Source: a virus. Taken from it: 36,660 bases of DNA. The translations under genes and the position numbers were made by a program. Each line of letters starts with the position of its first letter. The first letter of the stretch is position 1. Below the pieces are notes generated by a model, which saw only the letters and a list, made by a program, of their open reading frames with translations, ran no database searches and had not been told where the DNA came from. Below are positions 12,334-32,663 of this stretch, piece by piece. The stretch is from UHGV virus genome UHGV-0183637. One strand, 5' to 3'.

Positions 12334-12801
12334 ATGCAGACCTTCAGTGAAACAGATCTTCGCGATGCGCAGGCACTGCTGCCCGATTCCGTGCAGCAAC
12401 TGATTAGCGTGATTGGCTTCCCCGCCCTGACCCGGTTAATCCGTTCTTTTGGTGGCGTGACGTTAAGCGGTAAAACCGGCGCACACGCCGAACGAACCGG
12501 CGGTGTCCATGCCCTGTTACATGATGTGCTGACCGAAGACGAAATCAACAAACTGATCCGCTTTCTTGGCGGTGCACCGTTTTACATTCCCCGTTGCGAT
12601 CATGCGTTACGTGCCCTGCGTAACACCCGTTTTATGGCTGATTTACAGCAGCATGTAAAAGACGGATGCTCACACCGGCAGGCGCTGGCACTGCTCTGTC
12701 CCCGTTACGGGATTTCAGACCGGTATGCATGGCAACTGATACACCGACGACAAAAACAGACTTCGCTGAAAAGCCCCACCCAGGTGGGGCTTTTTGATTA
12801 A
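12334..12801 (+). CDS. Mor/C-family transcriptional activator
   Basis: 155 aa; FLGGAPFYIPRCDHALRALRN matches the GG..YIPR signature of Mu Mor/C, with a C-terminal HTH (YGISDRYAWQLIHRR). GGAGA RBS 7 nt upstream. A GC-rich stem-loop plus T-run overlaps the 3' end. Confidence 0.8.
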   Translation: MQTFSETDLRDAQALLPDSVQQLISVIGFPALTRLIRSFGGVTLSGKTGAHAERTGGVHALLHDVLTEDEINKLIRFLGGAPFYIPRCDHALRALRNTRFMADLQQHVKDGCSHRQALALLCPRYGISDRYAWQLIHRRQKQTSLKSPTQVGLFD

Positions 12802-12828
12802 TGAGACTAAGAAAAAAGGAGGCACGAA

Positions 12829-13116
12829 ATGATGAGTTCTGACACCAATATCGACTACGCAGCACTCGGTGAATATACCGCATTTTCAGACAAGGCCCGG
12901 GATGCAGCCCGTCGCCGACATGCTGAGATGTGTAATTTATCCAGTTATCTGGCGAGACAGGCCCAAAGCCCGGAGTCAGAAACGAATCATAATGAAGTGC
13001 TGTCAGCCGTAAACAGAATGATTGACGCAGAACGGGAAATGCGTAATGCCGTGGAAAGAGCTAACCTGCTGGCGCGGGCATGTTATAAGCCACCATTAAA
13101 ACTCGCTTCTCTTTAA
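12829..13116 (+). CDS. Hypothetical protein
   Basis: Strong RBS AAGGAGG; 95 aa; charged, probably helical. Confidence 0.55.
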   Translation: MMSSDTNIDYAALGEYTAFSDKARDAARRRHAEMCNLSSYLARQAQSPESETNHNEVLSAVNRMIDAEREMRNAVERANLLARACYKPPLKLASL

Positions 13117-13143
13117 CCCATCCAGATAATCAACCTGCCGGGG

Positions 13144-13156
13144 GTGCTGAACACCC
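13144..13156 (+). promoter_or_regulatory. Conserved 13-mer GTGCTGAACACCC, copy A (putative late promoter/activator site upstream of the lysis genes)
   Basis: Exact 13-mer shared with 20702 and 32651; the extended dyad GGGTG-CTGAA-CACCC and following CAGCAGTACCC resemble copy B. Confidence 0.5.
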
Positions 13157-29456: not shown

Positions 29457-30805
29457 TGGGCTGGGCTGAAAACCTGCAAAACGCTTCCTTTCGCGGTGTG
29501 CAGTTTGATGTACTGAACACGGATGAGCAAATCAGCCGCGACCATGCGGCCTATGAATACCCGTTTGTTGACGGGGCGGATTTGCACGACCTCGGACGCA
29601 AGGCGCGACCGTTCCGCCTGACGGCGTTCCTGTGGGGAGACTATTACGAATATAAACTCGAAAAGCTGACCGCCGCCCTGGACGAAGGCGGCGCTGGTGA
29701 GCTGATTCACCCGGTTTATGGCTCTGTACCGTCGGTGATTGTGACCGGCTACAGCATCCGCCATGACGCAGAAAGCCCGGACAGCTGCACCATCGACATG
29801 AGTTTTCTGGAGAACCGCACCGGCAGCGCGTTGTTCAGCACCCCGTTACCGGAGTTGTTTGCACAGCAGTTATTTGAAGAACTGGATAAGTTACTGGCAC
29901 AGTTAAGCGAATTATTTGACGCTGTTACAGCCCCTTTAAAGACCATTAACAGCGTGATTAAAAAAATCCAGACAGTGCGCGCCACACTGGTAAATACCCT
30001 GCTGACGTTCAAAAGCGATTTTCTCTCATCCATCGACAATATGATGTCGCTGGCCAGCGAACCCGGGAAATTTATTGGCGGGCTGGCAGAGGTGCTGGAA
30101 ATCCACACGTCAGATGTCGGGCACGCGGTGCCGGTGCTGGAACGTACTGATTCCGCCACCACGACCGGACTGACCGGAGAAGACAGCGTCGCCAGTTCTG
30201 CGACAGTGATGACCTGCTGGAATGAGGTGATGGCAGATATGGATGAGCTGGTCGCGCTGCCGGTCGCACTGGTCAGCGGTGATAAAACGCCGTCTGTGGC
30301 ACTTCCGCCGGATGCGTCCGTGGAAGACGTACAGGACGTGAAAGCGGCTTATGCGGTTCTGGCGGCCTCAGAGCTGGCCAGCGTGGCGACGGCGATACTG
30401 TCCGATGAAGCCCAGTCAGAACAGCTTATACCGGCGGATATCGGGCGACTGGTCGGGGATGTGCGCACCCGCTTACAGGCCGCCATCACGCTGTTCCGTG
30501 AACGCTATGAAGGCGAACGCGAACGGATAACCGAAACCGCATCACCGCTGGGGCTGATGTACCCGGAAATCATTCAGAGCATGAAGAACGTGGCGGCATC
30601 CGTGCAGGATGTCGGCCTGCTGGTGCTTTCACGCCGCCCACCGCTGACGCAGAAACAGGTACAGGCGGACAGCTGTCTGCTGTTGCTGGCGTGGCAGTGG
30701 TACGGCGATTACAGCCGTGCGGCAGAGCTGCAACGTCTGAACCCGCAGCTGCGCGACCCGAACAACATAACCGCCGGGATGATGATTAATGCCTACGCAA
30801 AATAA
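29456..30805 (+). CDS. DNA circularisation protein (Mu P / gp43-like)
   Basis: 449 aa immediately after the tape measure gene; Mu P position. Confidence 0.75.
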   Translation: MGWAENLQNASFRGVQFDVLNTDEQISRDHAAYEYPFVDGADLHDLGRKARPFRLTAFLWGDYYEYKLEKLTAALDEGGAGELIHPVYGSVPSVIVTGYSIRHDAESPDSCTIDMSFLENRTGSALFSTPLPELFAQQLFEELDKLLAQLSELFDAVTAPLKTINSVIKKIQTVRATLVNTLLTFKSDFLSSIDNMMSLASEPGKFIGGLAEVLEIHTSDVGHAVPVLERTDSATTTGLTGEDSVASSATVMTCWNEVMADMDELVALPVALVSGDKTPSVALPPDASVEDVQDVKAAYAVLAASELASVATAILSDEAQSEQLIPADIGRLVGDVRTRLQAAITLFRERYEGERERITETASPLGLMYPEIIQSMKNVAASVQDVGLLVLSRRPPLTQKQVQADSCLLLLAWQWYGDYSRAAELQRLNPQLRDPNNITAGMMINAYAK

Positions 30806-32000
30806 CGACGACAAAATCAGTCTGGTCATTGCCGGAAGGTCGCATTCTGACTGGAGCAGTTACCGTATTGACAGTGATTTCCTGAAAGCTGCCGACGGCT
30901 GGCAGCTTCAGTTGGGACTGCCTGAAAAGGTGTTCCCGGCGGATATCGTCCGGGGTGCGCCAGTCCGGTTGCAGGTGGGAGACGAAACGGTGCTCAGTGG
31001 TCGCGTGGACAGCGTGCGCCGCAGTGTATCCCGTCAGAGCTGCACGCTGACGCTGTCCGGGCGTGATGATGCCGCCATTCTGGTGGACTGTGCCGCGCCG
31101 GTGTTCAGCGCCAACCAGCTGACACTGGACGAGGTCATCGACAGGATAGTCAGACCGCTGGGGATACAGCGCATTCGTATTCAGGCGTCCGGTGTGTCAC
31201 GTAATGACAAGGTCGTTATAGAGCCGGGGATGCGTGCGTGGGATGCACTGGCTAAAGCTGCCGCCGGTCGCGGCTTATGGCCGTGGTTTGAGCCTGACGG
31301 GACGCTGGTTGTGGGTGGCCCTGACTACACCACCACGCCGGTGGATACGCTGATTCTGAAGCTGGACGGCACCGGGAACAACGTGATGGAGCTGGATGAT
31401 ACCCGGTCCATTAACGGCTGCTTCTCCGAACTTACAGTGCTGGCACAGAGCCACGCCCGCCGCGCAGACAGCAAAAAGCAGCTGGCCACAGTGCCACTGG
31501 ATATCTGGAACGAGGACGGCAGCGTGCGCACATTATCCGGGCGGGACGGCGGTAATACGGACAATGGCCAGACAGGCATTCATAACATGAAAGCTGTGGC
31601 CACCGACCCCACCGTGGATTATTACCGCCCGCAGATTATCACTCAGGGTGACACCAGCAACCTGGAGCAGGTGAACTGGCGCGCCAAAAAAATGATGAGT
31701 GATGCCCGTCTGTCGGGGCTGGATATCGTCGCACTGGTTGCAGGTCATCGCACGGCGGACGGTGTCCTGTGGCAGCCCGGCCAGCGTGTGCGGATTGTCA
31801 GCGAACCCCACGGCATCGACGCCATCTTTTTCCTGATGGGGCGTGAGTTCAGCGGAGGCCGTAACGGGAAGACAACCCGGCTCCGCTTTAAGGAGGACGG
31901 CGTGTGGATACCTGACGCCTTCCCGCGCGAGAAGAAACGCCATCACCGCAGGGGCAAAAAGAAAAAAGAGGTCGCTATTGTTAAGGTCTGGGAGAAATGA
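30789..32000 (+). CDS. Baseplate hub / tail protein (Mu Q / gp44-like, gpD-like)
   Basis: 403 aa; position; basic C-terminal tail. Confidence 0.75.
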   Translation: MPTQNNDDKISLVIAGRSHSDWSSYRIDSDFLKAADGWQLQLGLPEKVFPADIVRGAPVRLQVGDETVLSGRVDSVRRSVSRQSCTLTLSGRDDAAILVDCAAPVFSANQLTLDEVIDRIVRPLGIQRIRIQASGVSRNDKVVIEPGMRAWDALAKAAAGRGLWPWFEPDGTLVVGGPDYTTTPVDTLILKLDGTGNNVMELDDTRSINGCFSELTVLAQSHARRADSKKQLATVPLDIWNEDGSVRTLSGRDGGNTDNGQTGIHNMKAVATDPTVDYYRPQIITQGDTSNLEQVNWRAKKMMSDARLSGLDIVALVAGHRTADGVLWQPGQRVRIVSEPHGIDAIFFLMGREFSGGRNGKTTRLRFKEDGVWIPDAFPREKKRHHRRGKKKKEVAIVKVWEK

Positions 32001-32650
32001 TGTGGGACAAGGTTAATCAGCGCGTACAGCAGGCACTGGCCGCCGTTCGCCAGGCGTTCAGGGTGGTGACCGGTACGGTGGACAGTTCGACCAAAGTACA
32101 GTTGCTTCAGCTTAACGGGCTGGCAGGCGAACAGCTGGACGGTGCGGAGTATTTTCAGCATTACGGCCTCACCACATCCCCGCCGCCAGGCTCAATGGGT
32201 ATTGCCGTTCCGCTGAATGGCAATACATCCCATACCGTCGTCGTGGCCACAGAGCACGGCGCATATCGCCTGACGGAACTGAAACCCGGCGAGGTGGCCC
32301 TGTATACCGACGAAGGCGCAAAAATCGTACTGAAGCGCGGGCGGATTATTGAAACAGAATGTGACGTTTACCGGGTGAAATGCAAACGCTATGAGGTTGA
32401 GGCAGAGGAGAACGCCGCATTCACGACACCGTTACTGACGGCCAGCGATAAGCTGACGGTGGAAGGTAAAATCACCGGCAACGGTGGCATGGCCATCAGT
32501 GGGGGCAAGGAATACGCCGCCACTTTTGAAGGCAACATCAACCATGTAGGTGGTGTGCTTACCTCCGTTGACGTCACCATTAATGGCGTTAAAATCGGAA
32601 CACACAAACACCCAACCCCACACGGCATGTCTGACACGCCGGTTAATTAA
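31997..32650 (+). CDS. Baseplate central spike / assembly protein V (Mu gp45-like)
   Basis: 217 aa; ATGA overlap with the previous gene; position. Confidence 0.75.
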   Translation: MMWDKVNQRVQQALAAVRQAFRVVTGTVDSSTKVQLLQLNGLAGEQLDGAEYFQHYGLTTSPPPGSMGIAVPLNGNTSHTVVVATEHGAYRLTELKPGEVALYTDEGAKIVLKRGRIIETECDVYRVKCKRYEVEAEENAAFTTPLLTASDKLTVEGKITGNGGMAISGGKEYAATFEGNINHVGGVLTSVDVTINGVKIGTHKHPTPHGMSDTPVN

Positions 32651-32663
32651 GTGCTGAACACCC
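32651..32663 (+). promoter_or_regulatory. Conserved 13-mer GTGCTGAACACCC, copy C (putative late promoter upstream of the baseplate wedge genes)
   Basis: Exact 13-mer immediately after the gp45-like stop and 40 bp upstream of ATG 32704. Confidence 0.45.

Follow-up and report, generated by a model that had tools for sequence, protein, structure and literature searches.

The window analyzed here, a stretch of 36,660 nucleotides of the virus genome UHGV-0183637, is an Escherichia coli Mu-like transposable prophage that carries a 13-nucleotide sequence, GTGCTGAACACCC, in front of three blocks of late genes. Comparison of this sequence with its counterparts in related prophages suggests that the three 13-mers are, with good probability, the upstream parts of three late promoters (designated A, B, and C), most likely switched on by the single Mor/C-family activator of the prophage, which is encoded at 12334-12801 on the + strand. 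According to this model, the 155-amino-acid Mor/C protein would bind a conserved block containing the 13-mer as an oligomer and would recruit or reposition the sigma-70 RNA polymerase, like Mu C at Plys, PI, and PP. The activator would then switch on lysis, packaging, and head morphogenesis genes from promoter A, head and tail genes from promoter B, and baseplate wedge and tail fibre genes from promoter C.

Exactly three exact copies of the 13-mer were found in the window, all on the + strand, at 13144, 20702, and 32651, while none of 100 dinucleotide-preserving shuffles contained even one match. An earlier inspection of the letters alone (the sequence-only reading) had reported these three copies and had placed them before the lysis genes, the protease/scaffold gene, and the baseplate wedge genes, respectively, and the coordinates and the gene annotation agreed with it on both counts. 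Copy A (13144-13156) is located 28 nt past the stop codon of the open reading frame (ORF) 12829-13116 and about 150 nt upstream of the holin ATG at 13304, copy B (20702-20714) lies inside the 209-bp gap between the G-like gene and gene I (the protease/scaffold gene), and copy C (32651-32663) directly follows the TAA of the gp45-like gene (31997-32650), 53 nt upstream of the gp46-like gene. Allowing up to two mismatches yielded three more matches (3310, 29829, and 31099), which were all on the - strand, intragenic, and without downstream promoter features. These and two other loose copies (22320 and 31108) were rejected as being intragenic, mostly on the - strand, and without a -10 element at the offset described below (+38). 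A position weight matrix (PWM), built from the B and C sites of relatives, so that the copy A types were outside the training set, gave 33.9 bits for copy C, 32.9 bits for copy B, and 23.3 bits for copy A, the next best of 73,226 positions scoring 9.3 bits. A strict pattern combined with the -10 rule also returned exactly three sites in the window. The search for further copies, which the sequence-only reading had proposed, was run with both the pattern and the PWM; the window contained no fourth late site, and none was found in the remainder of the prophage in the close E. coli relative STEC316.

We then compared 80 loci around the capsid gene, 80 around the terminase gene, 19 around the activator gene, and 80 around a lysis gene from a distant relative. 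The three copies occupied orthologous places in at least 17 close relatives, and every close relative had the motif at all of those places that its locus covered. Distant relatives, with capsid proteins 70 to 86% identical and neighbouring genes 35 to 60% identical to those of the window, contained no 13-mer; they had CCA-CTGAAC-CCC-TTCA before the lysis genes, in the G-I gap, and in the gp45-gp46 gap. An alignment of 57 nonredundant sites of the family, anchored on CTGAAC (T10, C11, A39, and T43 were not used in the selection; offsets are counted from the C of CTGAAC), revealed a directional conserved unit, [nTG or CCA]-CTGAAC-N-CC-N-TCA-N-C, in which C0, T1, G2, A3, A4, C7, C8, T10, and C11 were invariant in all 57 sites. 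Offsets 12 to 20 were moderately conserved (A-n-C-T-G/T-A-T/A-T-C) and offsets 21 to 37 unconserved, whereas further downstream an A at +39 and a T at +43 were each present in 56 of the 57 sites. This is the TAnnnT signature of a sigma-70 -10 hexamer, whose distance from the C of CTGAAC is exactly 38 bp.

In the window, the hexamers at offset 38 are TACCCT at promoter A (13185-13190, + strand), CATCAT at promoter B (20743-20748), and CAGACT at promoter C (32692-32697); at promoter A, the hexamer at this offset is TATCCT or TATCTT in diverged relatives. The hexamers found 17 bp upstream of these -10 elements (AGTACC, AGTACC, and TGATTC) match TTGACA at no more than two of six positions, so that there is no usable -35 element, and a consensus scan of 11000-14000, which covered site A only, showed no canonical promoter at this site. 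The conserved block of about 24 bp, GTG-CTGAAC-A-CC-(C/T)-(T/C)C..., which is found on the + strand at 13144-13167 (A), 20702-20725 (B), and 32651-32674 (C), would span about -53 to -30 in the window promoters. With transcription predicted to start at offset 50-51, the centre of the invariant block (offsets 0-14), that is offset 7, would be placed at -43/-44. Two other positions of the -10 element were considered and rejected: at the Mu-like distance of 28-29 bp from the box, no TAnnnT is present at any of the three copies, and the alignment fixes 38 bp; the hexamer 9 nt past CTGAAC (AGTACC/TGATTC) is without the conserved A and T, and its position suits a -35 region. The parallel that the sequence-only reading had drawn with the activator-dependent late promoters of Mu thus holds in its computable parts, as the same spacing and -10 motif occur before the same gene blocks in distant relatives.

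The product of 12334-12801 matched the Pfam family Mor (PF08765) with 29.1 bits (cut-off 24.9, E=1e-6) and PHROG 836, 'late transcriptional activator', at 1e-42, and a 98%-identical E. coli protein has been named 'Mor transcription activator family protein' by the Prokaryotic Genome Annotation Pipeline (PGAP). Members of the Mor/C family are small (about 100-150 amino acids), with an acidic N-terminal and a basic C-terminal half (PMC2582627). The same division is seen in the 155-amino-acid protein, which has 9 D/E and 6 K/R in residues 1-75, and 5 D/E and 13 K/R in residues 76-155. Its linker FLGGAPFYIPRCD aligns with FLGGRQFYIPCGD of Mu C, i.e., the GG..YIP. beta-strand linker that precedes the C-terminal helix-turn-helix (HTH), and residues G40, G41, Y84, and P86 were invariant in 18 relatives. 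A family profile was needed to detect the solved structures of Mu C (9l0x and 9vw8; E=7e-4, aligned positions 70-155), a search of solved structures with the single 155-amino-acid sequence being not significant (E=0.4). When all six frames of the window were searched with hidden Markov models (HMMs) made from 3 and 48 sequences, no second Mor/C-family ORF better than E=1 was found, which, together with the Pfam and PHROG matches, bears out the statement of the sequence-only reading that only one gene of this family is present.

Relatives with a 75 to 78% identical terminase possess two Mor/C-family genes, and the window protein shares 44 to 56% identity with their downstream paralogues and 34 to 38% with the upstream ones. 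Because of its higher identity to the downstream copy, the product of 12334-12801 can be assigned as the orthologue of the downstream, C-position paralogue. In these two-activator relatives, the promoter of the C-position gene carries CCA-CTGAAC, and the lysis and gene I promoters carry (C/G)TG-CTGAAC. In single-activator phages with all-CCA late sites, the activator is nearer to the upstream paralogue (41-47% vs 36-42%), while in the window a downstream-clade activator is paired with GTG sites. As judged from these comparisons, the triplet 5' of CTGAAC (nTG or CCA) co-varies with the clade of the Mor/C protein across three phage groups. We consider this co-variation the best available evidence that the Mor/C protein may read the box, and it predicts a simple specificity determinant: the triplet (nTG here, CCA elsewhere) would set which activator paralogue recognises the site.

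Several observations weigh against the proposed role of the 13-mers. The -10 hexamers of the window are weak, matching the consensus at three to four of six positions, and the start sites were deduced from the position of the -10 element alone (start 7 nt after it). The Mu promoters, when aligned by their -10 elements, show no consistent match to CTGAAC-N-CC, the spacing being off by 9 bp. The symmetry that would be expected of a site bound by a dimer or a tetramer is weak and not clear-cut: the only family-wide symmetry is TGAA-N4-TTCA, centred at about -44, the window form of which (TGA-N6-TCA) is good in copy C, partial in A, and poor in B, and the second candidate, the clade-specific GGGTG-N5-CACCC centred at about -49, occurs only in copies A and B of this clade, so that B fits the first candidate poorly and C the second. 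Finally, a near-consensus sigma-70 promoter precedes the late activator gene itself (see below), which raises the question of how a lysogen keeps late expression off.

Four other explanations of the 13-mers were weighed. The motif might be a promoter site of another protein, either a host factor or a phage protein, for example, the 95-amino-acid product of 12829-13116, since several early ORFs have no known function, and the 95-amino-acid gene is co-transcribed with the activator gene. However, the motif triplet follows the Mor/C clade in all three phage groups, and the 95-amino-acid protein exists in the relatives as two alleles that are only 47% identical, whereas copies B and C are unchanged. 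Moreover, the geometry fits that of Mor/C sites (PMC2582627), and no further DNA-binding domain was found between the B gene and the lysis genes. We therefore regard a different binding protein as improbable.

The 13-mer could also act as an RNA stem-loop (GGGUG-CUGAA-CACCC), serving as a boxB/nut-like antitermination signal, a processing site, or a terminator of the upstream operon. A 5-bp stem with a pentaloop resembles lambda boxB, the RNA folds of copies A and B have energies of -21 and -12.5 kcal/mol, respectively, and shortly after the stop codon of the activator operon, copy A contributes to a stem of 12 bp. Copies A and B agree at 24 of 28 positions, GGGTG-CTGAA-CACCC included, so that the shared segment of about 28 bp with a dyad described by the sequence-only reading is present. 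The dyad does not stand, however, as a conserved recognition unit. Of GGGTG/CACCC, copy C retains only GTG...CAC, the left arm being absent, and its RNA is unfolded (-0.9 kcal/mol, no more stable than shuffled sequences). In eight relatives, copy A contains GTGCTGAACTCCC without any compensating substitution; in one relative (L014), copies B and C have a T at this position; and in the CCA-type clade, the left side is ACCCA, which is unable to pair, and yet this clade keeps CTGAAC-N-CC and the spacing to the -10 element. There is, furthermore, no U-tract, the element lies upstream of the predicted starts, and no Rfam match was found in the window. On these alignments, GGGTG-CTGAA-CACCC is best described as a clade-specific feature, and the stem-loop explanation appears to be largely refuted by the comparative data, leaving it with a very small probability.

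Just as improbable is the view that the repeats are nonregulatory module-boundary or recombination sequences left by mosaic exchange. In its favour, two unrelated versions of the sequence upstream of copy A exist among the relatives, with the junction right at the motif, and morons vary just upstream of the activator module. Nevertheless, this explanation does not account for the invariant 38-bp spacing to TAnnnT across an unconserved spacer, the same architecture recurs before three operons though the flanking genes are only 50 to 60% identical, and promoters are expected at module junctions anyway. Promoters for an alternative sigma factor of the extracytoplasmic function (ECF) type, with TGAAC as the -35 element, are the least likely of all. 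ECF -35 elements typically contain GAAC, but no conservation is seen 16-17 bp downstream of it, and the conserved hexamer, with the TAnnnT signature of sigma-70, is found 32 bp further downstream. Pfam scans of early and regulatory ORFs, which covered only some of the ORFs and left several early ones unmatched, detected no sigma-factor domain.

Activator-dependent initiation downstream of the three 13-mers remains the favoured model, and under it the three promoters differ in their leaders. Promoter A has its predicted start at about 13197, which would give a 107-nt leader before the holin ATG at 13304. The predicted leader of the lysis operon (13197-13303) folds with -47 kcal/mol (z -5.4) and includes a long hairpin at about 13219-13266 that has no Rfam match. 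Copy A itself is embedded in a palindrome with a 12-bp stem (13135-13163, CTGCCGGGGGTG-CTGAA-CACCCCCAGCAG; -21 kcal/mol as RNA, no U-tract), which is found 19 nt beyond the stop codon of the activator operon, exactly at the mosaic junction.

By contrast with the leader of promoter A, transcription from promoters B and C is predicted to start at the A of a start codon, which would lead to leaderless mRNAs. At promoter B (-10 element and start codon within 20743-20758, + strand), the ATG of the protease/scaffold gene at 20756 is located 7 nt past the -10 element, and at promoter C, the ATG of the gp46-like gene at 32704 is located 6 nt past it; in essentially all relatives, the B-type and C-type sites have a start codon 6-7 nt after the -10 element and no Shine-Dalgarno sequence. 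For gene I, this required the replacement of GTG 20702, the first start in the ORF list, by ATG 20756, which corresponds to the equivalent ATG of relatives and to the 371-amino-acid protease annotated by PGAP in STEC316, and which places the N-terminus within two residues of that of Mu I.

A 13-bp inverted repeat (32681-32709, + strand) surrounds the -10 element of promoter C, which is placed in or next to the loop; the 3' arm of the repeat holds ATG 32704, and its RNA folds with -23.8 kcal/mol (z -4.8). When the gp45-gp46 gaps of relatives (L001-L063) were compared, each of the 21 distinct sequences had a stem of 6 bp or more around the -10 element, though built from 16 different arm sequences, and the start codon was wholly within the 3' arm in 16 of the 21. 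The arms co-vary, a CAT-to-CAC change accompanying that of ATG to GTG, and G.U pairs on the + strand make up 11 of the 213. Across the 57 sites of the family alignment, stems of at least 5 bp were observed at 36, as compared with 6.6 expected. In the clade of the window, CATCAT at the gene I start (20740-20764) pairs with the ATG region (-9.2 kcal/mol), and in other clades a stem of 7-9 bp flanks the -10 element of the gene I promoter, e.g., GGTGCCG-TATCGT-CGGCACC-ATG. Farther upstream in the G-I gap, at 20639-20663, there is an AT-rich palindrome, CGTTTTTAAAAGGGTTTTAAAAACG; the G-I gap of Mu likewise contains a strong gyrase site and a predicted terminator (Mu annotation 17879-17953).

A tentative extension of the model, which we rate as possible rather than probable, is that the late promoters double as translational gates and that the nTG/CCA triplet acts as a code against cross-activation between Mor-type and C-type proteins. 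Such a gate would be built on a hairpin, present at the gp46 promoter always and at the gene I promoter in some clades, with the -10 element in or beside its loop and the start codon in its 3' arm. In read-through RNA coming from the upstream operon, the start codon would then be sequestered and would lack a Shine-Dalgarno sequence, while RNA started by the activator at the A of AUG would be devoid of the 5' arm, so that only the leaderless RNA would be translated. If this is true, the synthesis of the baseplate wedge and the tail fibre would be strictly tied to activator-driven initiation.

The arrangement upstream of the activator gene differs from the cascade of Mu. An intrinsic terminator, CCCCTGC-CAT-GCAGGGG followed by seven T (12246-12269, + strand, stem 12246-12262), was detected by a terminator scan, and relatives retain it after at least five different upstream genes, their stem variants being compensatory. 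It is followed by a predicted sigma-70 promoter, TGTACA-16 bp-TATAAT (12277-12304, + strand), which matches the consensus at 10 of 12 positions, contains a conserved GATC in its spacer (12286-12289), and is the best promoter-like site in 11000-14000. This promoter is constant in 19 close relatives, and a GGAGA ribosome-binding site and the ATG come after it; in a 93%-identical relative (L178), both hexamers are kept, whereas the spacer has diverged. A Mor-type paralogue and a box-bearing middle promoter are missing in the window, where the terminator and the sigma-70 promoter are found in that place. As far as can be judged from these elements, the activator gene forms what looks like a transcription unit of its own, lacking an activator box and preceded by a sigma-70 promoter that looks strong. 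The middle step of Mu would accordingly be absent, with the early operon stopping at the intrinsic terminator and the activator gene using its own sigma-70 promoter. A search for an operator common to the early control region and the activator promoter revealed no shared word of 11 or more bases and only trivial 9-mers, and a LexA box or other palindromes at the activator promoter were rejected, being unconserved in the 93%-identical relative.

The ORF 11757-12233 (158 amino acids, orf158), which occupies the position of Mu mor, has a signal-peptide-like N-terminus (MMKKWLFCLVGVIFSCSALA). It is missing or swapped for other genes in close relatives, and the interval between GemA and the early terminator that it occupies resembles a moron slot. 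We rejected orf158 as a hidden Mor, as it shows no similarity to Mor, no Pfam or PHROG match, and a signal-peptide-like start, and is absent from close relatives.

The sequence-only reading had suggested that the middle and late steps may be merged or use a different cascade, and the relatives lend comparative support to this idea, as those with two activator genes have a middle promoter that the window phage lacks. It consists of CCA-CTGAAC-CCC-TTCAAC with AATACT at +38 and is located before the downstream gene. In L199-L211 (e.g., L202:3594-3690 and L204:4156-4250), a second box, TA-CTGAAC-ACC-TTC, overlaps the -10 element and the start of the middle promoter itself, and a terminator-like hairpin with a T run comes after this promoter, upstream of the C-type gene. 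The second box and the hairpin could serve late-activator feedback or attenuation. In three other relatives (L197, L237, and L195), the activator gene is placed directly after GemA or overlaps it, without a promoter of its own, much as in SuMu and 3927AP2, in which C is missing and mor is immediately followed by lys (PMC4553209). A single activator is not new, as it is known from other Mu-like phages (PMC4553209); as for the terminator-plus-sigma-70 arrangement, we found no mention of it in the literature examined.

As regards the remaining layout of the window, positions 1-1236 are host DNA with a transaldolase gene (ORF 511-1236, - strand), and the prophage begins about 1.3 kb into the window. 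It starts with a CI-type repressor (1429-2055, - strand), which is followed by a Ner-like gene, located between the repressor and transposase A, by transposase A (2517-4559), the B gene (4578-5471), and GemA (11263-11760). Two holins and a GH108 endolysin come after the Mor-family gene, and beyond the endolysin the gene order is terminase, portal, F-like, G-like, protease/scaffold (I), capsid (T), sheath, tube, tape measure, N-like, P-like, gp45- to gp48-like, and tail fibre genes. The late blocks, all on the + strand, thus comprise holins, endolysin, terminase, portal, and the F-like and G-like head morphogenesis genes (block 1, promoter A, 13304-20546); protease/scaffold, major capsid, connector, sheath, tube, tape measure, N-like, P-like, and gp45-like genes (block 2, promoter B, 20756-32650); and the gp46-, gp47-, and gp48-like baseplate wedge genes and those of the tail fibre and its assembly protein (block 3, promoter C, 32704-36024). 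Block 3 runs on past the end of the window, where a second tail-fibre gene (36073-36660) is unfinished, the right end of the prophage being outside the window. In STEC316, the prophage continues for about another 2 kb, with only two further genes before the host DNA, and neither this right-end continuation nor the window contains mom or com genes. Rfam and tRNA scans of the window found nothing.

Of 5,426 complete E. coli genomes, 58 contained the activator-lysis junction (12200-13400) with 95 to 99% identity, and many of these 58 are from Shiga toxin-producing E. coli (STEC). Relatives of the group also occur in Klebsiella, Kosakonia, Trabulsiella, and Citrobacter. No close deposited phage was found by megablast of 12000-21000 against the phage collection. 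Among species-representative genomes, a scan with the activator protein revealed no relatives and one with the capsid protein revealed distant relatives only, which placed the group in Enterobacterales.

Together, these data point to a phage switch of an ordinary type, in a form that had not been described before. They provide a testable promoter model (box, spacing, -10 element, and start) for a group of Mu-like prophages whose late promoters are currently unannotated, and they correct the start of the protease/scaffold gene. DNA recognition by Mor/C proteins is known from Mu alone, and the group adds a second, much larger natural set of sites, with a predicted 3-bp discriminator that clearly co-varies with the protein clade. 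Within one phage group, the three-step cascade of Mu stands beside two shorter designs, in which the activator gene is either the last early gene or placed behind a terminator and its own sigma-70 promoter, and the latter design raises the question of how late expression is timed.

Among known systems, the closest in design is C of Mu with its promoters Plys, PI, and PP. In both cases, there is a small Mor/C activator, a -10 element without a real -35, a site at about -43.5, and rightward transcription (PMC2582627; PMC4461284). Mu C binds an imperfect dyad centred at -43.5, which overlaps a poor -35 and is located upstream of a recognisable -10 (PMC2582627; bioRxiv 10.1101/2025.05.02.651988), and a tetramer model places A and B sites upstream of the nonoptimal -35 (bioRxiv 10.1101/2025.05.02.651988). 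Mu also has a promoter before the lysis genes and another in the G-I gap, so that two of the three blocks match Plys and PI, whereas its third promoter is located inside N, before P, and that of the window before gp46, in the gp45-gp46 gap. The Mu box is ccATAAcCCC at 29 bp from the -10 element, unlike CTGAAC-N-CC at 38 bp in the window; identity to the Mu C protein is confined to the linker and HTH region; there is no mom/com and no fourth promoter here; and the transcript of Mu gene I begins with about 26 nt of leader that include a ribosome-binding site, whereas leaderless transcripts are predicted for promoters B and C. The order GemA, terminator, promoter, late activator, and lysis genes, with the terminator just upstream of the activator promoter, is common to both phages, but in Mu, Mor acts at Pm to produce C, while the window has one ORF of the family and no activator-type middle promoter.

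Haemophilus SuMu, Mannheimia 3927AP2, and the Pseudomonas D3112/MP22 group resemble the window phage in having one Mor/C gene between GemA and the lysis genes, and the 155-amino-acid protein shares 31 to 34% identity with their activators. A separate C gene is absent from SuMu/3927AP2-type phages (PMC4553209; PMC4378225), and their activator has been treated as the last early gene with lys directly downstream (PMC4553209), unlike the arrangement with a terminator and an own promoter found here. The closest deposited phage by activator is Klebsiella phage ST405-OXA48phi1.1 (MK388859, L341), with 41% identity. Three late promoters are arranged in it in the same way, as boxes of the form CCA-CTGAAG/C-CCC precede its lysis gene, gene I, and GP46 (9270, 18063, and 29750), but its sites are of the CCA type and its activator belongs to a different clade. 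In MK388859, the Mor/C ORF (8343-8738) is found in a gap between annotated coding sequences (8396-8784), and a 'regulatory protein' feature is listed under the match.

Finally, the mRNA of lambda cI transcribed from PRM is a leaderless phage mRNA. Promoters B and C resemble it in their predicted start at the A of the start codon and the absence of a Shine-Dalgarno sequence, but they differ from it in that late structural genes stand here behind a predicted activator-dependent promoter and in that, at promoter C, the start codon is paired in a conserved hairpin, which only read-through RNA would be able to form.

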